The notes beneath the pieces were generated by a model. That model saw only the letters and a list, made by a program, of their open reading frames with translations. It was not told where the DNA came from and ran no database searches. The translations under genes were made by a program, and so were the position numbers. Of a DNA stretch of 64,000 nt, positions 7,293 through 28,116 are shown piece after piece (positions within the stretch are counted from its first letter, which is position 1; every line of letters begins with the position of its first letter). Source of the stretch: Minisyncoccota bacterium (lineage in GTDB: Bacteria; Patescibacteriota; Minisyncoccia; Phycocordibacterales; UBA9973); the NCBI GenBank assembly GCA_018061145.1, contig JAGOUR010000004.1, positions 10,625-74,624 of the forward strand, written 5' to 3'.

Positions 7293-7472
7293 ATATGTTT
7301 TATTGGTTTATAATAATAACGGAACCATTCAAGGTCTATTACTACTACAAACATAAATTATTAATAATTATCTTCTCCCTCACCTAGCTAAGGCTCGGGT
7401 CCCTTTTTTAGGAGGGCACGCAGAAAATGCGATGAACCAATAGTAGCAAATTTCAGGAAAATGTCAAATAAA

Positions 7473-7503
7473 AACCCCGCCGATTATCGGCGGGGTTTTT
7501 ATT
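7473..7503. terminator. Bidirectional rho-independent terminator ending the minus-strand secreted-protein operon
   Basis: ccccgccgat/atcggcgggg hairpin flanked by aaaaa and ttttt. Confidence 0.7.
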
Positions 7504-7506
7504 GAT

Positions 7507-8802
7507 CTACCAAGATATTCTAACTGCACCATTAGCACCTCTTCCTGTTCCATAATCTCTGTTAGTGATACCACCCTCTCCTACTTCTATGGCATAAGTT
7601 ATGCTAGAAGTATCATCTACCCAATCAAATTCAGCTACAACATAACCCCCAGCCCCTCCACCAGCACTTCTTGGGCGTTTCCAATCTGTTGCACTATAAG
7701 GGATTGGAGCTTCACACAATGCAAGTGTTCCTGCTAAGTGACCTCTTCCACCCCCTCCAGAACCAAAATTTACACCTTGTTTACCAGTAGAACCATTTAG
7801 AGTACTACCTCCCTCTCCCCCATAACCACCGTAATTACCATCAGGAGATTTTGCAGACACACCCCCGCGACCACCAATACACTGAGTAACATATACAGGA
7901 GGTATCGTGGGTAGTGGGTCAGGATTAAATGCTGATTTAATCAATAAAGGCATAGGAGGCCAAATTGCGGCAGAAATATAAAATCCTGAATTTTGTCCAT
8001 TACCCCCCTTAACAGCTACCGCATCTGTAATATTATTTGTATAAGCATTTCCACCCTCTCCTCCAACGAGCCATGTCCCCATTTTACCTGACTCTGCGAC
8101 CATACTCTTGCCTGTCGCGACTCCATTTTTATACTCTGTAACATAACTATTATCGGCTGGATTAGTATGATTGCCATCATTACCTGGGTTTGGATCATTA
8201 CTTGGTACACTATTTCCACCACCGCCCCACAATTCTATCTTATATCTTTCAACCCCAACAGGAAGATCCGCCTGAGGGTTAAACACATGTCCACCTGGAG
8301 TGCTTCTTATCCACTCTCCATGAGGGGCAGGACAAGGGAACAACATCCCCACATCATTTACGCACAATTTTCTTCTTCCCTGCTTTCCTTTTATGTCTAT
8401 ATTATTCAAATACAATAACTTAGTAGTCAAATCTCCACCACTCATATTGTACTCAGCACCGATAGAATCTGAAGCCCCTCCAGATCCACCGCAAGCAGTA
8501 GCACAAGCAACACCCACAGTAGTATTTCCAAAAGCTGTAAGGTATTTGGAGAACATCACACCTCTAACATCAAGAGTAGCGACAGGACTAGATGATGAAC
8601 CCAAACCGATATTACCCAATATTGATTGATAGACATCAGACCCCTCAAACAACACAGATATAGGTGTGTTCGTAGAAGAAACGTTGCTAGAGTTAGGAGT
8701 AACAGCAGGCTTCGCTGTATATGTTGCAGATACTTGATTAATTGCCAACGTCAAAACAAGTGCGGGTATAATTATCTTAAAGAATTTTAAATATTGTTTC
8801 AT
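7507..8802 (-). CDS. Secreted glycine-rich protein with a cleavable signal peptide; no recognisable homolog
   Basis: N-terminal hydrophobic segment with an ...VSA|TYTAKP cleavage site. Many GGxGG / GNxG stretches. Same operon strand as the next four genes. Confidence 0.5.
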   Translation of the reverse strand: MKQYLKFFKIIIPALVLTLAINQVSATYTAKPAVTPNSSNVSSTNTPISVLFEGSDVYQSILGNIGLGSSSSPVATLDVRGVMFSKYLTAFGNTTVGVACATACGGSGGASDSIGAEYNMSGGDLTTKLLYLNNIDIKGKQGRRKLCVNDVGMLFPCPAPHGEWIRSTPGGHVFNPQADLPVGVERYKIELWGGGGNSVPSNDPNPGNDGNHTNPADNSYVTEYKNGVATGKSMVAESGKMGTWLVGGEGGNAYTNNITDAVAVKGGNGQNSGFYISAAIWPPMPLLIKSAFNPDPLPTIPPVYVTQCIGGRGGVSAKSPDGNYGGYGGEGGSTLNGSTGKQGVNFGSGGGGRGHLAGTLALCEAPIPYSATDWKRPRSAGGGAGGYVVAEFDWVDDTSSITYAIEVGEGGITNRDYGTGRGANGAVRISW

Positions 8803-8819
8803 TTGTTTAATATTAATTA

Positions 8820-9203
8820 TTAATTACACTTTATAACTTGTTTTGTTGCAGTCATAATACAAAGCTCATTTGATGTATAAGAAGGACTAAAAGCATCCGG
8901 AGTAAAGTACAGATGGTTAGACATCATATCCCCTGTCACCACTGCAATGTTTGAAACAACCATACTATCAGCAGACAAACTTCCATTTACATACAGCTTA
9001 CCAGAACCTGTACCAGATGTACCCACGGCCACAGACCCCATTCTAGCTTGAGCGCTAGCACCAGTATTTATCATCGCTGGAGTGTTGCATGATGGTGCGA
9101 CACAAGATGGCTTTGCTATATATGCAGCAGATACCCAATTTATCGCTACAGTAAAAATTAATGCAATAATTATTATTTTTGTTGTCTGTAAAATTTTTTT
9201 CAT
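8820..9203 (-). CDS. Small secreted protein whose N-terminal module is paralogous to that of the 7507..8802 gene
   Basis: KIIIIALIFTVAINWVSAAYIAKP aligns with KIIIPALVLTLAINQVSATYTAKP. An identical ttaattaataattaa sits upstream of both ATGs. Confidence 0.45.
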   Translation of the reverse strand: MKKILQTTKIIIIALIFTVAINWVSAAYIAKPSCVAPSCNTPAMINTGASAQARMGSVAVGTSGTGSGKLYVNGSLSADSMVVSNIAVVTGDMMSNHLYFTPDAFSPSYTSNELCIMTATKQVIKCN

Positions 9204-9213
9204 ATTTTAATTA

Positions 9214-9966
9214 TTAATTAACTTTTAAATAAGCAGTGACAGATGATGAACCATTACCACAAGTCAATTCATATACAGTACCACTACCGATGAGCGTGAC
9301 ATTACGAGTTCCATTTGGTGCCAATATCAGATTAACCAGAGTAGGATCACTCTGCGGATCGATTCTCTCTAGAGAACAAGAAGTGGTATTCACAGAAGTC
9401 CAAGATAGTAATTTTGCAGTTGAACTATTCCCCGATTTTGTAAAAGAAGTGATGGCAGGGGCGAGTGCTGGAGTTGTGGTAGGGGTATTTGAACAGATTA
9501 CAACTTTGTTAGATGAATTTACGCAGAGACTTTTTATTGTATTTGAATTTTTAACTGTAGCAATATCTATGACAGAAAAATTTGATTGCTTTGTGGCATC
9601 AAGTGGATCAGTATCATTTACAGTTAGACTATTCCCAACCTGAAGACTAGCATTTACCCTTGTTATATCATTTGAAGTAGACAGAGATCCTACAGTAGTA
9701 GAACCTTCTACGTGAAGAGTACTATCACTCGCGGGGAAACTGGCACTACCTATAGACAGTGCATGTGGCACCTTGTACCCGACAGCCCCAGTGGCAGGTA
9801 AACCTAATTTTGATTGATTTACAGCAGGGCTCAATACGATTGGAGCACCTACATTTTTATTTGGTGGCAATGCAGATGGTCCAGCAAATGCGATACCAGC
9901 AAATGCGATACCTACCAAAACCATGATTGAGAAAATTTGTTTTGTGTTCATATGATTAGCGTTCAA
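9214..9966 (-). CDS. Secreted Ser/Thr-rich protein (start may be the internal Met at 9951)
   Basis: Signal-peptide-like N-terminus with a GIAFAGIAFAG duplication. Low-complexity S/T/N-rich body. Overlaps the upstream gene stop by 11 nt. Confidence 0.45.
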   Translation of the reverse strand: MNANHMNTKQIFSIMVLVGIAFAGIAFAGPSALPPNKNVGAPIVLSPAVNQSKLGLPATGAVGYKVPHALSIGSASFPASDSTLHVEGSTTVGSLSTSNDITRVNASLQVGNSLTVNDTDPLDATKQSNFSVIDIATVKNSNTIKSLCVNSSNKVVICSNTPTTTPALAPAITSFTKSGNSSTAKLLSWTSVNTTSCSLERIDPQSDPTLVNLILAPNGTRNVTLIGSGTVYELTCGNGSSSVTAYLKVN

Positions 9967-12769
9967 TTACTTTTATCTTTTTTGTTAATGGGTCGAAATT
10001 CACAGGCACATCATCATGATTTGAGAATGATGAATTTGAACATGCTACTCTAAATGTTGTAGAACCAGGGTCCGCAACAGTGACTGCATATCCAGCATCT
10101 GGCGGAATAGCACTGTTATCCATCTGTGCAGGTTGATTAGAAGCCACAGAAACACCCTTTGTATGATTAGAGATAGCACATGAAGTTGCATCTGTAGATG
10201 TCCAATATATTCTTACATTTTCTCCAATTTTTGCACTTACAGGTAGAGCCCATGCAGTTACTGTGGGTGTTGGTAACACTACATTAATACGCACAGTTAC
10301 AGGGACAGTAATCCCATCCAGACCAACACAAGACAGTGTATATGGTTGGTTATTCCCTAGTGTGTTTAAAGTCAAATTAGCAACACCACTAGTAGCACCC
10401 CCAATGATAGTAAATGGTGCAGTATTCCAAGCTGGCCCAGGAGAAGCAGGAGAGCAAGAACTCGCTCCTGTTACATTCCAAACAAGGCGACTAGGTGAAC
10501 CAACTGCTACAGTAGCAGAAATTGTACCGACAGATCCAACTCCGAATCCTACAACTGCTGGGGTAGGAGGCACAACACTTATAGTCAAAGGACTCGTAAC
10601 GCTTGATCCCGTAGAATTAAAACATTCAAGTAGATATGATTCACCAGTTCCAGCTACTGAGATAGGAAGAGCACTACTTGATACTCGATTTGCAGTTGCA
10701 GCTGATCTTGTAACCAATTTTGTATTTGTTGTCGTATTCCAGACATCACAACCAGCACTTGCATTTGTAGATGCCCAATATAATCCTGTATTTCTGTTTG
10801 TTGAGGGTACAGAATTATTTAAAGCAGTAGTTTTCAATCCCGCACCAGGACCAAATGAAGGAGGAGCGGTGACACCAACTGTGACGTCTACAGTCTTAGT
10901 AACTGTATTGATACCATTAGTACAAGACAGCTGATATTTGGAATTTGCCGTTACAGTATCTAAATCATTACCAATAGCAGGAAGACCACTACTTACAGAA
11001 GAGTAAGTCGGACTAATCCTGTCTAATTTACAAGATGAAACATACACCGCAGTCCAATAAAACCCAGAAACACCAGACGAAGCTGTAAATGAAGGAGGTG
11101 TAGCTGTGAATGATGTGATAGATGGCATAGGAATTGCATTCAGACCAGTAACAGGCACAAACACTGATGCAGTAGCAGTCTCTCTTGTGGCATTGTTTGT
11201 ACAAGTGATTATATATTCTGCATCCGCTGGACCAGCAGTCACATATTGGCTCTTTGCTGTATAAGTAGGAGATACATATGGGTTGCTACTGCCGTATTTA
11301 CCATAAACGATAGATGGCGGAGTCTTTATATATCCAAAACCCCATATATTCAAGAAATCATAAGCACCTGTAGTGTACACACCTGAAACCCTCTTCATAC
11401 CATTACAAGACACTCCTCCAGAATATTGGAAGTTCGTCATATTCCAAGTTAATAAAACTTGGTTTGCTGAAGTTTGAGTAGTAGATCCAGAAGGTAGGGC
11501 GACGGCACTCACAGGAGTAGTGTTATTAGATGGGACAGTAGCAGTAGCTGTTATAGTCATAGCTGGCTTTGCTATTGTAATAGTGACACTCTTTGAAGAG
11601 ACTAGATCTGGTCTAGCTCCTACGCAAGTGATGACATAAGTCACATCAGAATTGCCATCATAAGTTACTGCCTTTGTGCCTGACACAGGAGTGACAGAGG
11701 AATTACCAGTCCAGATAGTACCGGTCCACACAGGATCAGAAACGTCAGAACCATTTATCACCTTCTTTGCTGTACAAGAATTTGAGTGCTTTGCAGTCCA
11801 AGATAATGTAATTGGATTCTTTACCGGAAGATTGGATTGGAAATAATAAGGAACCTGAGGTGTACTAGAAGCAAGAGTAATTTCTGGAGCAAATCCTACT
11901 ATAATAGAGGCAGAGGCAGTTTGATTTGTCAGACTATTGCGACAGTTAATACTATATGTAGTTGTGTAAGGCTGATCTTTAAGATCGTAATATCTAGAAT
12001 CAGAAACTGCAGCAGTGTTGGTAACATTCCAAGTATTCCAAGTTGTATTTGGAGAAACTACTCCATCTACGGTCTTTGATCTGTTACAAGTAAGGGCTGT
12101 GCCCCCAGGAGCAGGAGTAGCAGAATATGATATCAAAACGCGTGAAGCCTCAGCATTAGCCAAACTCAATGTTTGTTTATTTGCAGTTAGATTAATAGTG
12201 AGCGCAGGAGACCAACTCGGTGGTCCAACAGACACATCACTCATATCTATCCAACCGATAAGATCACTACCCCATGCATAAGAATTTGCTAGCATCTTTC
12301 TTGATCCACTAACAGCAGAACCAGTATTTAATCCATTCAAGTCTATAAAACCAGAAAATCCAGCAGCAGAAGTAGATCCATTGCCAGACAAAACTTTTGC
12401 AAAACCATAGAATGTATACTTATCACCTAAACCTGCTCCACTATATATCACACGAGGAGCACACACAGAAGCTGAAGTTCCACCCGGGCAGGAAGAGAGG
12501 TTTGGATCAAATCGAACCCAGCCAACATTGTCACTCCATGCATAACCATCTAATTTATTTTGATCATTCAAAATAACTTTATAGGCAGTAGAATTACTAG
12601 GACCACAGGTAGATGTAGACAAACAGTTAAATGTGATCCATCCGATATTACCAGACCAGGCGCTACCATACATATCAGACAGAGCAGAAGCAGTATGAGC
12701 AAAAGAGAATATACCAAATACTGCCACCAGAGTGATACTTATATTTAAAATGTATTTTTTAATATTCAT
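9956..12769 (-). CDS. Large (937 aa) secreted surface protein with N-terminal aromatic-Gly-Trp repeats and Thr/Ser-rich, probably Ig-like, C-terminal domains
   Basis: Signal peptide (MNIKKYILNISITLVAVFGIFSFAHTASA). Repeats AWSGNIGWITFN, AWSDNVGWVRFD, AWGSDLIGWIDMS at roughly 42-aa spacing. Long beta-rich T/S/N regions follow. Confidence 0.55.
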   Translation of the reverse strand: MNIKKYILNISITLVAVFGIFSFAHTASALSDMYGSAWSGNIGWITFNCLSTSTCGPSNSTAYKVILNDQNKLDGYAWSDNVGWVRFDPNLSSCPGGTSASVCAPRVIYSGAGLGDKYTFYGFAKVLSGNGSTSAAGFSGFIDLNGLNTGSAVSGSRKMLANSYAWGSDLIGWIDMSDVSVGPPSWSPALTINLTANKQTLSLANAEASRVLISYSATPAPGGTALTCNRSKTVDGVVSPNTTWNTWNVTNTAAVSDSRYYDLKDQPYTTTYSINCRNSLTNQTASASIIVGFAPEITLASSTPQVPYYFQSNLPVKNPITLSWTAKHSNSCTAKKVINGSDVSDPVWTGTIWTGNSSVTPVSGTKAVTYDGNSDVTYVITCVGARPDLVSSKSVTITIAKPAMTITATATVPSNNTTPVSAVALPSGSTTQTSANQVLLTWNMTNFQYSGGVSCNGMKRVSGVYTTGAYDFLNIWGFGYIKTPPSIVYGKYGSSNPYVSPTYTAKSQYVTAGPADAEYIITCTNNATRETATASVFVPVTGLNAIPMPSITSFTATPPSFTASSGVSGFYWTAVYVSSCKLDRISPTYSSVSSGLPAIGNDLDTVTANSKYQLSCTNGINTVTKTVDVTVGVTAPPSFGPGAGLKTTALNNSVPSTNRNTGLYWASTNASAGCDVWNTTTNTKLVTRSAATANRVSSSALPISVAGTGESYLLECFNSTGSSVTSPLTISVVPPTPAVVGFGVGSVGTISATVAVGSPSRLVWNVTGASSCSPASPGPAWNTAPFTIIGGATSGVANLTLNTLGNNQPYTLSCVGLDGITVPVTVRINVVLPTPTVTAWALPVSAKIGENVRIYWTSTDATSCAISNHTKGVSVASNQPAQMDNSAIPPDAGYAVTVADPGSTTFRVACSNSSFSNHDDVPVNFDPLTKKIKVIER

Positions 12770-12771
12770 AA

Positions 12772-13089
12772 TTATTGATATAGACTTTTGATAATTTCGG
12801 CTTCACGAGCTTTTGCTTCTTTTGGTGGGAGTGTATGACCTGGAGCTTTTAGCGCTTCATCCATCGCATTTATACGATCTTCTTCGGTGAGATTTATTTT
12901 TACCGCATCTTCGGCTGCAGTATTTATCATCTCTTGTATTTTTTCTTCTTCTGTCGGAGGTATTAGAGAAGCTTTGTATTTTTTATAAAAAAAGACACCG
13001 AGTAGCACTAGAACAATTAATAATATTAATATAATAATATTTTTTTTCTGAGAGAAAAAATTTTGTGAAACTTTTTTTATGTCAATCAT
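12772..13089 (-). CDS. Small membrane-anchored protein, first gene of the secreted-protein operon
   Basis: One TM helix (IIILILLIVLVLLGVFFY). Its stop is 2 nt from the start of the 937-aa gene, suggesting translational coupling. Confidence 0.4.
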   Translation of the reverse strand: MIDIKKVSQNFFSQKKNIIILILLIVLVLLGVFFYKKYKASLIPPTEEEKIQEMINTAAEDAVKINLTEEDRINAMDEALKAPGHTLPPKEAKAREAEIIKSLYQ

Positions 13090-13135
13090 TGTATTTTTAT
13101 TATATCACGCATGCAAAGTATCACAACACAAAATC

Positions 13136-13164
13136 TTGCTTTTCTGTGGAAAAGTTGGTATTAT
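13136..13164 (+). promoter_or_regulatory. Sigma-70-type promoter for the nusA transcript
   Basis: TTGCTT (13136-13141), a 17-nt spacer, then TATTAT (13159-13164). Confidence 0.45.
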
Positions 13165-13176
13165 ATTTATACAAAT

Positions 13177-13200
13177 GTCCGTCTCGAACCGGACTTTTTT
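13177..13200 (+). promoter_or_regulatory. Leader hairpin plus T6 immediately downstream of the predicted TSS (attenuator-like)
   Basis: gtccg-tctcgaac-cggac followed by tttttt. Confidence 0.3.
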
Positions 13201-13389
13201 AGTAAAATAATGAGCCGTAGGCGAATATATTTTATTTATGCAAAACAAGGAGCATCGCGACTATGTTTTGCGCTAGTAAAATAAGGAGCTACGTGTGAAC
13301 ATATTTTATTTATTCAAAATAGGGAGCGAAGCGACCATATTTTGTATTTTAGCAAAATTAAATAGAAGGCATAAATATTTTTTCATGCC
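13201..13389 (+). repeat. Tandem repeat of a ~75-bp unit, about 2.5 copies, in the nusA 5' leader
   Basis: Unit 1 is 13201-13275 and unit 2 is 13276-13350 (agtaaaataaKgagc...atattttatttatKcaaaa.a.ggagc..gcgac.at.ttttg), with a partial third unit. Each half-unit carries a GGAG element. Confidence 0.6.
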
Positions 13390-13402
13390 GGACAATAAAT
13401 AA

Positions 13403-14590
13403 ATGATTGATATAAAAACAATGAAATCAGCCCTCGAACAACTCGAGACTGAGAGAAAAATACCAAAGGACAAGATACTCGATGCTATCGAGCAGGCTCT
13501 TGCTGCTGCCTACAAGAAAGAATATGGCAAAAAAGGCCAGATAATCCGTAACAAATTTGACCTAGAAAATGGGGAAATGAGTTTTTACCAAGTAAAAATC
13601 GCAGTAGACGAGACTATAGTATATATTCCAAAGAATATTGAGGGTGAAGAGGAGGAAGAATTAGCTGACGATGACGAACGCACACGATTCAACGAGGAGC
13701 ATCACATCATGATAGACGATGCCCGCAAGATAAAAAGTGATGTTCAGCTAGAAGAAGAATTGATTTTTCCACTAGAAACACATGAAGATTATGGACGTAT
13801 TGCTGCTCAGACAGCAAAACAAGTGATAATCCAGAAGATCCGTGAAGCAGAGAGAGCATCTATTATAGATGAATACGGAGCAAAAGAGGGTGAAATCATC
13901 AATGGTTTCATACAAAAGGTAGAGAGAGGTGTAGTTTACATCGAATTCAACCGTGCAACAGGCATAATGCTACCTGAAGAACAGATCCCAGGGGAGTTTT
14001 ACAAGCGTGGAGACAGAATCCGTGCGTACCTATATGCAGTCGAGGAGACTCCAAGAGGTATAAATCTAAAGCTTTCTCGTACACATCCTCAATTTATCGA
14101 AGGATTGTTCGCAGTTGAAGCCCCAGAAATAGCAGGTGGCACAGTAGAGATAAAGTCTATAGCCCGTGAAGCTGGTAGTCGCTCAAAGATCGCAGTTTAC
14201 TCAAATGACGACCATATCGACCCAGTAGGATCATGCGTAGGCCAAAAAGGTATCCGTGTAACTACAGTTATGAGTGAATTGGCAGGTGAAAAGATAGATA
14301 TCATCCCATGGTCAGCTGATCCAAAGGAATATGTGGTCAGTGCTCTTTCTCCAGCAAAAGTCCTAAATATTACAGTAAATGAAGGCGATCACAAGGCTAC
14401 AGTAGACGTAGCAGCAGATCAGTTATCTCTAGCTATCGGTAAAGGTGGTCAAAATGTACGCCTTGCAGCAAAGCTCACAGGATGGAGAATCGATATCAAT
14501 GGTACAGAGGCTACACCAGAGGCAAGTACAGATGATATAATAGACGAAGAATCTATCGATGACGGTATCGTCGACGATGGAACAAATTAA
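13403..14590 (+). CDS. nusA: Transcription termination/antitermination factor NusA
   Basis: NusA N-terminal domain, S1 and two KH domains (GxxG: IGKGGQNVRLAAKLTGWRIDI). Acidic C-terminal tail. Confidence 0.9.
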   Translation: MIDIKTMKSALEQLETERKIPKDKILDAIEQALAAAYKKEYGKKGQIIRNKFDLENGEMSFYQVKIAVDETIVYIPKNIEGEEEEELADDDERTRFNEEHHIMIDDARKIKSDVQLEEELIFPLETHEDYGRIAAQTAKQVIIQKIREAERASIIDEYGAKEGEIINGFIQKVERGVVYIEFNRATGIMLPEEQIPGEFYKRGDRIRAYLYAVEETPRGINLKLSRTHPQFIEGLFAVEAPEIAGGTVEIKSIAREAGSRSKIAVYSNDDHIDPVGSCVGQKGIRVTTVMSELAGEKIDIIPWSADPKEYVVSALSPAKVLNITVNEGDHKATVDVAADQLSLAIGKGGQNVRLAAKLTGWRIDINGTEATPEASTDDIIDEESIDDGIVDDGTN

Positions 14591-15354: not shown

Positions 15355-16212
15355 ATGAGACAATTAAAAATTTCAAAGCAATTCACAAATAGGGATGCCA
15401 GATCTCTTGATGTATTTTTCAACGAAATGAGCAAGACACCACGCCTTAGCTGTGAGGAGGAGATATCTCTAACACAAAGGATAAGAGATGGAGATCACGT
15501 AGCCCTAGAAAAACTAGTGACCTCAAATCTGAGGTTTGTAGTATCGGTAGCAAAACAATACCAAAACCAAGGATTATCATTGGGAGACTTGATAAATGAA
15601 GGTAGTATCGGACTAACCAAGGCGGCCCAAAAATTTGACGAGACCCGTGGATTTAAATTTATATCTTATGCAGTATGGTGGATCAGGCAATCAATAATCG
15701 CGGCTATAGTGAATAGCGCCAAAATGATTCGTCAACCATTAAACAAAGTTGTTCTGGGTAATAAAATAAATGCAAAAACGGGACAGCTTGGGCAAGAATT
15801 AGGGAGAGAACCTAGCGACGAAGAGATTATGGAATATTTAGACATAGATAAAGAAAGTTTTAACCATTATTTAGAAAGCGCAAAACATCTATCTCTAGAT
15901 TCCCCTATCAGCGAAGAAGGCGATATCACTATTTTAGACACCATCGATAATCAAGAAGAGAGCCCTGACTCAATCTTAATGAAAGAATCTCTTAGTATTG
16001 AATTAAAAAGAGTTATAAATAAATCATTAAACGAAAAAGAGAAAGAGGTTTTAATCTATTATTATGGATTGGACGGCAATGCCCCACTAAGATTAGAAGA
16101 CATAGCCAAAAGAATGAAAATCACCAGGGAGGGTGTACGCCAGATAAAAGAAAGGTCTCTTAGAAAATTGGGTAAACATACTTACCGAAAAAAATTAATC
16201 TCATATTTATGA
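15355..16212 (+). CDS. rpoD: RNA polymerase sigma-70 family factor (compact primary-like sigma with regions 2-4)
   Basis: Region 2 (LRFVVSVAKQY, YAVWWIRQSI), region 3, and region 4 HTH (LRLEDIAKRMKITREGVRQIKERSLRKL). Confidence 0.8.
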   Translation: MRQLKISKQFTNRDARSLDVFFNEMSKTPRLSCEEEISLTQRIRDGDHVALEKLVTSNLRFVVSVAKQYQNQGLSLGDLINEGSIGLTKAAQKFDETRGFKFISYAVWWIRQSIIAAIVNSAKMIRQPLNKVVLGNKINAKTGQLGQELGREPSDEEIMEYLDIDKESFNHYLESAKHLSLDSPISEEGDITILDTIDNQEESPDSILMKESLSIELKRVINKSLNEKEKEVLIYYYGLDGNAPLRLEDIAKRMKITREGVRQIKERSLRKLGKHTYRKKLISYL

Positions 16213-26484: not shown

Positions 26485-26643
26485 GGTAGAATCGGCTATT
26501 TTATGGTCACAAATAATTTTTCGCCGCCGCTCCAAATTTTCGCGACCCCACCTCGTGGTTTTGCATGCTTGCAAAACATCACTCCGGCTCACGAAAACGA
26601 GAAAGAGCACTTAAATAGTGCTCTTTCTAAACTCACGTTTTTG

Positions 26644-26714
26644 TGCGGGATAGGAGAATCGAACTCCTGTCTCATCCTTGGCAAGGACGTGTTCTACCAC
26701 TAAACCAATCCCGC
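26644..26714 (-). tRNA. tRNA-Gly (anticodon GCC), CCA not encoded
   Basis: Hand-folded cloverleaf: acceptor gcgggat/atcccgc, anticodon arm cgtcc-ttGCCaa-ggatg, T-arm aggag-ttcgatt-ctcct. Confidence 0.85.
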
Positions 26715-26796
26715 ATTTGCCTATTATATTTTAAAATATATGGCTTTGTTGACACGATAAACCACTAAACCAATCCCGCATACGAAACCGAAACTG

Positions 26797-26867
26797 TCGG
26801 GGTGCAGGGAATTGAACCCTGTTCTCACGGTCCCAAACCGCGTATACTACCGGTGTACTACACCCCG
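26797..26867 (-). tRNA. tRNA-Pro (anticodon UGG), CCA not encoded
   Basis: Acceptor cggggtg/caccccg, anticodon arm cgcgg-ttTGGga-ccgtg (G37), T-arm caggg-ttcaatt-ccctg. Confidence 0.8.
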
Positions 26868-26914
26868 AAACGTCTTTCTATAGTAGCATATTTTAAACAA
26901 AAAACAATGCCCTC

Positions 26915-27322
26915 CTAAAGTATTATATTCTCCATCCTTTTTACTCTCGCTTTTCTACTCTCCAGATCCAGATAAACCACCAATATATCAAATTGCCATT
27001 CCCTATTCCCTATCCTGTTATGTATTAGATATGTCTGTATAACTCGAGCCAGTCTCTGGCGCTTCCACATGTGGACATTCTCTTCTGGTCTGAACCACCC
27101 ACTTTTAGTTTCATGTGTAACATAATCCAGATCTGATACAGATTTTGCCTTTACTTCTATAAAATATAGAGAATTCCCCTTTTCAGCTATTATATCTACC
27201 TCCCCCCATTTCTTTGTATAGTTGCGCTCCAATATAATAAAGCCATGTTTCCCGAGAAACATACAGGCTACATCTTCGCCCAATTCCCCTATTTTTTGAG
27301 TATTTGAAGTAAATTTCTTCAT
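26915..27322 (-). CDS. yraN: YraN/UPF0102 family endonuclease (PD-(D/E)xK fold)
   Basis: GELGEDVACMFLGKHGFIILERNYTKKWGEVDIIAEKGNSLYFIEVKAK matches the UPF0102 signature (GE.GE..A...L...G..IL.RN.R...GEIDII..FVEVK). Confidence 0.7.
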   Translation of the reverse strand: MKKFTSNTQKIGELGEDVACMFLGKHGFIILERNYTKKWGEVDIIAEKGNSLYFIEVKAKSVSDLDYVTHETKSGWFRPEENVHMWKRQRLARVIQTYLIHNRIGNREWQFDILVVYLDLESRKARVKRMENIIL

Positions 27323-27440
27323 CCCGTTAGAGATAGGAAGTCCTTAGACTTCCGTATCTTACTTATTAATAGTAAACAATACAAATTTATCTATATACTA
27401 TATATTATAATTAAAATAAAAACGAAACATCTCTAACGGG
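27323..27440. repeat. 118-bp MITE-like leader cassette with CCCGTTAGAGAT / ATCTCTAACGGG terminal inverted repeats, abutting the yraN start codon
   Basis: Termini at 27323-27334 and 27429-27440. Internal hairpin ggaagtc-cttag-gacttcc. Near-identical 40-nt block shared with the element at 35790..35905. Confidence 0.65.
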
Positions 27441-27815
27441 ATTCATATTGTTACATGTGTAACTAATAAAGTGTGCCACGTGAAACGTTTTTCTATTTAT
27501 TAGACATCCAAACCATTATATAATATGTCTTTCACTTAAATAGCTTGATAAATAATGGTATTATAGATATTGTCTTATCTCTTTCGTGTATGACTTTATC
27601 CAATAAAAGCCTGTCTTATAAACAATACACACATAGTTATCCACATAAATGCTTATTTTGTAGGGGATTAACCTGGGGATAAAGGGACAAATCAAGGACG
27701 TCCATTAAAATAGATCTAGTAAATTTTGTGGTCAGGCATAATTTTCTGCTGAAAATTTGCACGACCCTGGCTCACGTCGTCACGTTCCACCTCGCACAAA
27801 ATGTCCGACATTTTG

Positions 27816-27887
27816 TGCGCCTGGCAGGAATCGAACCCACATCATCGATTCCGAAGATCGATGTCCTATCCATTGAACGACAGGCGC
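27816..27887 (-). tRNA. tRNA-Arg (anticodon UCG), CCA not encoded
   Basis: Acceptor gcgcctg/caggcgc, anticodon arm tcgat-ctTCGga-atcga, T-arm gtggg-ttcgatt-cctgc (two G-U pairs). Confidence 0.75.
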
Positions 27888-28024
27888 ATAGCAATACATA
27901 TATTATACATAAATGTTGCACAATTACAAATAATCCTTTATTTTAAAGGATTATTCCCAGATAATTGCATTTTAAATAAAAAAATACTATAATCTATCTA
28001 TTGTTTAATTGACAATATACATAT

Positions 28025-28095
28025 GCGGGATTAGTTTAGTGGTAGAACTACAGTTTTCCAAACTGTTGGCAGGCGTTCGATTCGCCTATCCCGCA
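28025..28095 (+). tRNA. tRNA-Gly (anticodon UCC), CCA not encoded
   Basis: Acceptor gcgggat/atcccgc, anticodon arm acagt-ttTCCaa-actgt, T-arm aggcg-ttcgatt-cgcct. Confidence 0.85.
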
Positions 28096-28116
28096 CAGTA
28101 TTTATTAACCGTATTT

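Follow-up and report, generated by a model that had tools for sequence, protein, structure and literature searches.

A Recombining Cassette of Putative Surface Proteins between nusA and tuf Belongs to a Three-Family Gene Cluster Found across Patescibacteria

Introduction

What is the role of a compact operon that lies among housekeeping genes and whose five products match no curated protein family? The operon in question is found in a stretch of 64,000 nucleotides from a Minisyncoccota bacterium of the Patescibacteria (assembly GCA_018061145.1, contig JAGOUR010000004.1, positions 10,625 to 74,624), which was analysed as a whole and is called here the window. Its five open reading frames (ORFs), named A to E, lie head to tail on the minus strand from position 13089 to 7507; downstream, the same strand carries tuf, rpsJ, and rplC, and upstream lies a divergent nusA. 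A reading of the letters of the window alone (the original prediction) had taken these genes for a block of secreted or surface proteins, possibly involved in attachment to a host.

Patescibacteria account for a large share of bacterial diversity and, as far as is known, live attached to other cells. We know of no molecule with which they choose or hold these cells outside a few cultivated Saccharibacteria. Comparison with related and distant genomes indicates that the operon is one member of an unnamed, phylum-wide cluster of three families, whose sequences point to the cell surface, and that the operon is hypervariable between otherwise nearly identical genomes.

Results

Protein B Starts with a Domain of a Large Unnamed Family

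The largest product, B, had been described as carrying four aromatic-Gly-Trp repeats followed by long β-rich Thr/Ser regions. The repeats are real, but they are five hairpins, three of them clear (AWSGNIGWITF, AWSDNVGWVRF, and AWGSDLIGWIDM, at residues 37, 77, and 165) and two degenerate (FYGFAKVL at about residue 121 and GFSGFIDL at about residue 141, positions at which most relatives have GWARAL and GWDGWI). They form a Trp-rich N-terminal domain (N-domain) with two Cys pairs in its loops, and its AlphaFold2 model, built from a 65-sequence alignment, is all-β with five hairpins (pLDDT 78.9, pTM 0.79). A Foldseek search of the model against PDB and BFVD gave no match, the best hits being loosely barrel-like (E = 0.2–0.4, TM < 0.45).

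When the profile of this domain was searched against 1.84 billion representative proteins, with clusters defined at 50% identity, it found 8,786 clusters at E ≤ 1e-3, 6,258 at 1e-10, and 561 at 1e-30. The 6,258 clusters found at E ≤ 1e-10 indicate that the five-hairpin repeats are not a product of chance. B itself matches the profile, which includes it, at E = 4.6e-42. At least 480 loci in species-representative genomes encode the domain, and among the best 80 of these 72 are labelled as Patescibacteria lineages, six as "bacterium," and two otherwise; one Desulfobacterales protein from outside the species-representative scan also carries it. Judged by these matches, the family is large, unnamed, and almost entirely found in Patescibacteria. 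Neither Pfam nor NCBIfam has a model for the domain, and no Pfam match covers it in B or in 98 other proteins.

The company that the domain keeps is uniform. In 88 representatives, the partner domains are without exception extracellular binding modules, with no enzyme of central metabolism among them: Ig_Rha78A_N occurs in 20 proteins, PKD in 13, Laminin_G_3, TSP3, and fn3 in three each, and CARDB, MAM, dockerin, the sialidase N-domain, and one ALK/LTK glycine-rich domain are also found. Proteins with this N-domain (B-type proteins) range from ~270 to >2,700 aa, with very different middles that include lectin-like, dockerin, and TSP3 domains. This is consistent with the surface-protein architecture first proposed for B, a protein of modular build for which no homology to an intracellular enzyme was found.

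The second constant part of B-type proteins is their extreme C-terminus. The strict form of its motif, P-x-[FIYW]-x-E-[IF], is present in 41 of 77 B-type proteins versus six of 631 background ORFs, and most of the B-type proteins lacking the strict form carry near-variants. B ends in ..DPLTKKIKVIER, where V-I-E-R is a clade-specific variant of the general motif. Full-length homologues of B are confined to a small clade of Paceibacterota; five of the seven clade homologues share its last nine residues (TKKIKVIER) exactly, and a sixth, P0007, differs by one change (TKKIRVIER). The public record of B (P0001, 923 aa) starts 14 codons downstream (start region 12728–12769), which costs the signal peptide its n-region and half of its h-region; the alignment of all orthologues begins at the longer start.

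Between these ends, the β-rich Thr/Ser region resolves into seven domains of ~95 aa, each with one conserved Cys pair (228/276, 332/382, 455/523, 580/616, 674/716, 772/814, and 864/910) and with the pattern L-x-W-x-S-x-N-A-x-S-C ... Y-x-L-x-C. The repeats align by BLASTP (E = 1e-12 to 1e-7) with repeats of three distant proteins, P0010, P0011, and P0023, that score as Pfam K319L-like_PKD (PF22352). B has no direct match to the Pfam PKD profiles (PF22352, PF00801, PF18911). Profiles of the Ig repeat, of the N-domain, and of protein E found no match among PDB sequences, the best hit of the Ig repeat being a weak one to a KIAA0319L chain (E = 0.72). The repeats are thus best called PKD-like Ig domains, by way of the intermediates.

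Proteins C, D, and E Share a Module with Interchangeable Distal Domains

C, D, and E are paralogues with a common N-terminal module, here called c-type (D and E share 41% identity over 82 aa, BLASTP E = 2e-10), and twelve orthologues of the three align over this one module. In order, it comprises a signal peptide, a Pro-rich stretch up to N..P, an invariant Gln and G-x-L-x-x-G, L-x-V-x-G, and a L-C-x(8-10)-C knot; the canonical mature start of the family reads A-W-T-G-P-T-x-x-P-P-x-x-N-x-x-A-P-I-N-V-G-x-x-x-Q-x-K-x-G-x-L. What follows the knot differs. The Ig domain of C, of the kind found in B, is present solely in the window and in the related locus L005, and the orthologues in L002 and L003 end at the knot. 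In their public copies, E and D carry the label Candidatus Pacebacteria.

E continues into a glycine-rich part. Relatives built like E match Pfam Gly_rich_2 (PF21722) at E down to 4.4e-14, and E shares with these scoring relatives the start LPxGVxxIKVELWGGGG and the end GANGxVxIxW. Aligned with the c-type members that bear Gly_rich_2, E gives a probability of 98% in hhalign (E = 2.8e-13, 168 columns), over a span that comprises the module, the knot, and solely the first strand of the glycine-rich domain. With the canonical ALK-type glycine-rich domain of P0049, only 20 columns align. The glycine-rich assignment of E is therefore a putative one, drawn through intermediates only.

A word-based search with the profile of the C/D/E module returned 11 close relatives only. 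The same profile, run on loci fetched solely through the B domain, matched 63 ORFs in 43 loci. Among 41 such neighbouring c-type proteins, seven carry Peptidase_S74, four Gly_rich_2, one collagen repeats, one an H-type lectin domain, and one a Hint domain. C, D, and E have no Peptidase_S74 in the Pfam scan; this domain serves trimeric tail fibres and endosialidases as an intramolecular chaperone. With a constant N-terminal end and interchangeable, apparently swappable, distal domains, the c-type family looks like one of secreted fibres. The locus L036 has two c-type proteins (9376–10227 and 10439–11485) with unusual distal parts, namely collagen-like G-x-y repeats and a Hint/pretoxin-HINT domain; the latter protein recalls the delivery of polymorphic toxins.

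Export Signals, Composition, and the Third Family

Each of the five products has one single hydrophobic segment, at its N-terminus, which bears out the signal peptides or membrane anchors first proposed for all of them. The segment of A is strong (mean hydropathy of 3.07 over 19 residues) and has no AXA site; A is therefore predicted to be a membrane-anchored, single-pass protein. The segments of B–E score 1.7–2.4 and are followed by AXA-type sites, with predicted cleavage (arrow) at ASA↓L in B, AFA↓G in C, VSA↓A in D, and VSA↓T in E; C, D, and E begin with MKKILQTTKIIIIALIFTVAINWVSA↓AY and similar sequences. These look like cleavable signal peptides typical of Sec substrates, so that export-type N-termini were recovered on reanalysis. 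Two other identities were rejected: that of pilins, as the pattern of the class III signal peptide (G, then F/M-T-L-I-E) is absent across the window, and that of sortase-anchored LPXTG proteins, as the last 60 residues contain no such motif and a hydrophobic segment is lacking at the C-terminus.

The original prediction also ascribed low-complexity bodies rich in Gly, Ser, Thr, and Asn to all five products. The bias holds for B–E, where these residues make up a fraction of 0.34–0.41 versus a median of 0.24 for the remaining long ORFs of the window, but not for A, which is charged (29% K/R/D/E). Low complexity alone is not an apt description, given the seven Ig domains of B, the tail-fibre-like paralogues C, D, and E, and the glycine-rich end of E. 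Cysteine counts are even (18 in B, four in C, four in D, and six in E). As had been noted at the outset, no family is recognised: A–E gave nothing significant against Pfam, NCBIfam, and PHROGs, and the weak matches of A, which has no curated family in Pfam or NCBIfam, merely reflect its transmembrane (TM) segment. An iterated search from A does find a family, of small single-pass proteins with one or two E-E-K-x-x-I-L-x-x-L motifs, encoded in 53 of the 80 loci.

The Three Families Form a Cluster across the Phylum

Cluster counts refer to 76 loci, which were fetched only through the B N-domain. The commonest neighbour of B-type genes in BLAST clustering is the c-type gene (71 ORFs in 47 loci). 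All 59 of 59 c-type genes lie on the strand of the B-type gene, 24 of them within 100 bp, and a c-type gene is adjacent on that strand in 38 of the 76 loci. An A-like gene lies on the same strand at ≤300 bp from the B-type gene, before or after it, in 39, and one or the other partner is adjacent in 56. Sets of three adjacent c-type genes recur across loci. In the 64-kb window, the A-like, B-type, and c-type profiles match genes of the operon only, and the association is therefore no by-product of abundant families.

In the window operon, B has the five-hairpin N-domain, and its neighbours on that strand are A, C, D, and E. By these profile matches, it is one member of a phylum-wide, unnamed cluster of three families of apparent surface proteins, and not a block particular to this genome. 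Literature on the motif, on surface and S-layer proteins of Patescibacteria, and on Southlakia Tn-seq, in a library that is not exhaustive, contains no description of these families or of the cluster.

The genomic context is recurrent as well. A divergent nusA is adjacent in 21 loci by BLAST clustering and in 22 by direct BLAST. In about 15 of the 80 loci, fusA and tuf lie on the same strand, often with B-type and A-like genes between them, inside the conserved str operon (for example, in L045, L011, L022–L025, L030, L031, and L036). pilB is a neighbour in nine loci and pilC in seven, together with pilins; in L072, for example, the order is divergent nusA, then A-like, B-type, pilB, pilC, and pilins, and L057 is another locus of this type.

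The Operon Is a Hypervariable Island between Conserved Flanks

The five genes keep their place between nusA and tuf in related Paceibacterota (at least four genomes; loci L002, L003, and L005), which supports the reality of the operon. The flanking proteins are almost invariant. Compared with L002, L3, L4, and S10 are 100% identical, trigger factor 99.7%, EF-Tu 99.5%, Ppa 99%, NusA 98%, and a sigma factor 97.9%. The proteins of the operon compare to these with 77% for A, 51% for C, 46% for E, and 45% for both B and D.

At the DNA level, the promoter-like site and the first half of A are 99–100% identical to L002. Identity then drops via 81% and 68%, is close to random in genes B–E, stands at 58% at the terminator, and recovers to 86–100% within tuf. 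The variable island is thus about 5.5 kb long and coincides with the operon. Within it, the least diverged parts are the N-domain of B (56–68%), the last domain and tail of B (65–72%), and C and D at their N-termini (67% and 62%, respectively). The 170-nt spacer between terminator and tuf (7293–7466) is 58–86% identical to L002, and tuf itself 94–100%; the low identity of the spacer places the edge of the island in the leader/promoter region of tuf.

The history of the genes departs from that of their neighbourhood. L005 has housekeeping proteins 91–98% identical to those of the window, and its C, D, and E are nearer to the window (66%, 68.5%, and 76% identity) than are the L002 counterparts; by this comparison, the gene trees disagree with the flanks. 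In strain L087, NusA is 97% identical, residues 1–600 of B are 77–95% identical, and residues 600–937 are 25–52% identical, which puts the breakpoint of this mosaic near window position 10970. Divergence of DNA to a random level between such close genomes is not explained by point substitution alone, and hence points to allelic replacement and domain shuffling by recombination. The conserved flanks are available as recombination anchors for the cassette. Such hypervariability is expected for exposed surface proteins that bind ligands or are targeted by phages. A metagenome scan for further alleles with an exact 29-mer from the start of gene A found one contig, already among the relatives compared.

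Two further observations concern the flanks. A sigma-70-type gene next to ppa (15355–16212), which is 97.9% identical in L002, is 53% identical in L088 (36–893), where Ppa is 98.5% identical, and is absent from the corresponding position in L003; it seems to be a second variable gene among neighbours that are otherwise conserved. L001 and L002 are two public copies of one relative's contig; in L001 (15639–16838), tuf is called as two ORFs of 208 and 182 aa, and in L002 it is intact (399 aa); the split is probably a sequencing or assembly frameshift.

Layout of the Operon

Order, spacing, promoter-like site, and terminator establish the operon structure (Table 1), and the tight packing, the common orientation, and the closure by one strong bidirectional terminator, all claimed at the outset, stand. 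The start of C was moved to the ATG at 9951, as its orthologues begin MKTKQIF and the junction reads ..GAACGC TAA TCAT ATG AAC ACA..; with this start, the gaps A–B, B–C, C–D, and D–E are 2, 4, 10, and 17 nt. The DNA around the promoter-like site (13035–13434) is 99–100% identical in L002. The terminator, read directly, is AAAAACCCCGCCG-ATAAT-CGGCGGGGTTTTT; it folds with −27.1 kcal/mol (z = −7.0; none of 200 shuffles folds as well), and, lying between an A-run and a T-run, it has a bidirectional form. Rfam gave solely subthreshold matches, all to this hairpin. The consensus terminator scan missed the hairpin, the strongest of the region and within the stated rules of the scan; it was found by eye and confirmed by folding.

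Third-position GC content (GC3) is 0.20–0.26 in the five genes versus about 0.29–0.45 in most other genes of the window. Overall GC content of the operon is not lower, because codons for Gly, Ser, Thr, and Asn lift positions 1 and 2. Either a relaxation of codon selection or a foreign source of the cassette may account for the low GC3. Elsewhere in the window, a small tRNA cluster lies at 26643–28096 (Gly-GCC, Pro-TGG, and Arg-TCG on the minus strand and Gly-TCC on the plus strand).

Table 1. Position of the genes, protein parts, and signals of the operon in the window (arrows mark predicted cleavage)
Feature	Position	Strand	Description
Promoter-like site 5′ of gene A	13099–13126	−	Predicted; TTGTGA, 16 nt, TATAAT, extended TG; 10/12 matches in consensus scan
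Gene A	12772–13089	−	ORF, 105 aa; TM segment at residues ~18–35; acidic tail with E-x-x-I-I/L-x-S-L motifs
Gene B	9956–12769	−	ORF, 937 aa
B, signal peptide	12686–12769	−	Residues 1–28, MNIKKYILNISITLVAVFGIFSFAHTASA↓L; predicted from hydropathy and AXA-type site; orthologues align from residue 1
B, Trp-rich five-hairpin N-domain	12224–12685	−	Residues 29–182 (154 residues); from alignments and AlphaFold2 model
B, stalk of seven PKD-like Ig domains	9995–12187	−	About 95 aa each; from Cys map and repeat pattern
B, conserved C-terminal tail	9959–9994	−	..FDPLTKKIKVIER
Gene C	9214–9951	−	245 aa after start correction (ORF list: 9214–9966, from TTG); c-type module, Cys-Cys knot (LCVNSSNKVVIC), one B-type Ig domain
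Gene D	8820–9203	−	ORF, 127 aa; c-type module alone, ends at Cys-Cys knot
Gene E	7507–8802	−	ORF, 431 aa; stop codon 7507–7509
E, N-terminal part	8326–8802	−	Residues 1–159: signal peptide, c-type module, Cys-Cys knot
E, putative glycine-rich domain	7510–8325	−	Residues 160–431; starts LPVGVERYKIELWGGGGNS, ends GANGAVRISW; 17% Gly
Intrinsic terminator hairpin	7467–7503	−	Begins 4 nt past the E stop codon; perfect 17-bp stem

Discussion

Our preferred explanation, which we regard as reasonably probable from the sequence comparisons, is that the operon is a recombining, Sec-exported cassette of surface adhesins or fibres, in which conserved ends anchor or assemble the proteins and variable distal parts bind ligands. 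A would stay in the membrane, and B–E would be secreted by Sec and then cleaved. The N-domain and tail of B, the N-terminal module of the c-type proteins, and A would hold the proteins on the envelope or on one another, leaving the variable Ig stalk and the distal domains exposed, where they could bind ligands outside the cell, those of a host cell surface being the most plausible. Hosts or phages would maintain a large number of alleles by frequency-dependent selection, and the cassette is replaced or reshuffled by recombination between genomes with near-identical flanks.

Several points weigh against this explanation. The export signals were judged by Kyte-Doolittle hydropathy and inspection only. 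The N-domain of B has no structural or sequence relative with an assigned function in the Foldseek and PDB-sequence profile searches, and its part as an anchor or docking domain is argued from the pattern of conservation and not from homology; at only about 52% identity between the two closest genomes, it is less conserved than a classic wall anchor. E itself falls short of significance against Gly_rich_2 (E = 0.32; 11.4 bits, the cut-off being 24.3), and its AlphaFold2 model is poor (pLDDT 41), with weak, nonsignificant Foldseek matches to jelly-rolls, including the ALK glycine-rich domain. Codon adaptation of B–E, which proved uninformative as a stand-in for expression, is in the mid-to-upper range, without a sign of very high expression. 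Finally, about one locus in eight places the cluster beside genes of type IV pili, and the proteins could therefore serve a pilus rather than act alone.

None of the known systems that the parts of the operon resemble matches them fully. Repeated β-hairpins with Gly, Trp, and aromatic residues beside a signal peptide recall the aromatic Gly-Trp repeats of CW_binding_1, but the hairpins of B are spaced by about 20–45 aa with long Cys-bridged loops instead of forming a regular 20-aa solenoid, and the model is one of a fixed set of five; an identity as choline- or cell-wall-binding repeats was rejected, in keeping with the lack of a Pfam match over the domain in B and the 98 other proteins. The seven domains of B resemble PKD/K319L-like repeats in their length and their L-x-W ... 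Y-x-L-x-C pattern, and align with repeats that score as such, but each has a conserved disulfide pair and none has a direct match in Pfam or among PDB sequences. For the glycine-rich part of E, the likeness to Gly_rich_2 and to ALK_LTK_GRD (PF12810), to a domain of which the B-type protein P0049 fuses the five-hairpin domain, is limited in hhalign to the first strand. C-type proteins resemble trimeric tail fibres and tailspikes in their attachment-like N-terminal module and interchangeable distal domains, among them Peptidase_S74 and collagen repeats; unlike these, C, D, and E have no Peptidase_S74, look like cellular Sec substrates, and are absent from viral collections, and a trimeric state for them is presumed from the likeness. 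By analogy, the logic of the cassette resembles that of both surface/S-layer cassettes and phage tail fibres, with a constant attachment end and swappable distal ends.

The likeness to S-layer cassettes suggests an alternative. In monoderm bacteria, wall-anchored modular surface proteins such as those with SLH domains or the CWB2 proteins of C. difficile, with its slpA cassette, have a variable exposed body together with a signal peptide and a conserved repeat domain at one end, and recombination replaces the exposed part in close strains. B likewise has a signal peptide, a conserved terminal domain, and a body exchanged between close strains, and might be the subunit of an S-layer lattice, with the N-domain bound to the wall, the Ig domains forming the lattice, C, D, and E as accessories, and variability serving escape from phages or predators. 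The window has a single B-type gene, and B-type genes often lie among strongly expressed ones, such as the fusA–tuf and nusA loci; moreover, arrays of Ig domains are known to build S-layers (PMC10120038). The differences are that none of the five proteins has a Pfam or NCBIfam match to SLH, CWB2, or another S-layer anchor; that the N-domain is instead an unnamed five-hairpin domain without a Foldseek match in PDB; and that the operon adds the conserved tail of B and two partner families. The codon adaptation of B (rank 14 of 50) is outside the top class, and the range of lengths and middle domains of B-type proteins fits adhesins better than lattice subunits, so that we consider a lattice unlikely. 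More improbable still is an accessory part in a type IV pilus for A, B, and the c-type proteins, as an adhesin set or an envelope-spanning support, here separated from the pilus genes. In nine of the 76 loci, A-like, B-type, (c-type), pilB, pilC, and pilin genes do lie on one strand, a co-location far above chance for a 12-kb sample of a roughly 1-Mb genome, which may in part come from both gene sets adjoining nusA. The majority of loci have no pilus gene nearby, pilB, pilC, and pilin-like genes are absent from the window, and C, D, and E look like Sec substrates, without the class III signal peptide of pilins (no G↓F-T-L-I-E).

Two further possibilities concern the origin and the assembly of the fibres. 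A phage origin, as a prophage remnant or a tailocin-like receptor-binding module, is suggested by the relatives of C, D, and E that carry Peptidase_S74 and glycine-rich domains common in phage fibres. However, the N-domain of B and the c-type module are absent from 2.9 million viral contigs, E is unmatched in 50,697 phage genomes, PHROGs has no family for B–E, all four of which have Sec-type signal peptides, the flanks contain no phage structural or integration genes, and the locus is syntenic among housekeeping genes across the phylum. On the absence from viral collections and PHROGs and on the housekeeping synteny, a phage origin was rejected as extremely unlikely. Across the phylum, B-type proteins are conserved at both ends and c-type proteins at the N-terminus, and everything between varies, a pattern that would also fit a Sec-only, sortase-free surface fibre, new to and peculiar to Patescibacteria. 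B would then be a head-to-tail polymer, its N-domain capturing the P-x-aromatic-x-E-[IF] tail of the next subunit, or a platform anchored by A, with a C/D/E heterotrimer as tip; alternatively, the N-domain would capture c-type N-termini or the repeats of A. If this were true, the tip fibre would set host specificity by exchange of its swappable distal domains. We regard such an assembly as quite unlikely, if less so than a part in a pilus.

In conclusion, a recombining cassette of surface adhesins or fibres remains the explanation that we favour. Secreted adhesins and fibres are a known kind of protein; the modules, their association, and the pattern of conserved ends are not described in the searchable literature, within an incomplete library. 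What the locus offers is a large unnamed domain family, a three-family cluster that can be searched for by profiles, and evidence of cassette exchange, and the cluster would be useful as a marker in strain-level population studies. Recombination of the cassette type is typical of determinants of host range or of phage receptors, which makes the cluster a candidate determinant of host specificity among ultra-small bacteria not yet in culture: judged from its sequences, the cassette may help to decide what these cells attach to.

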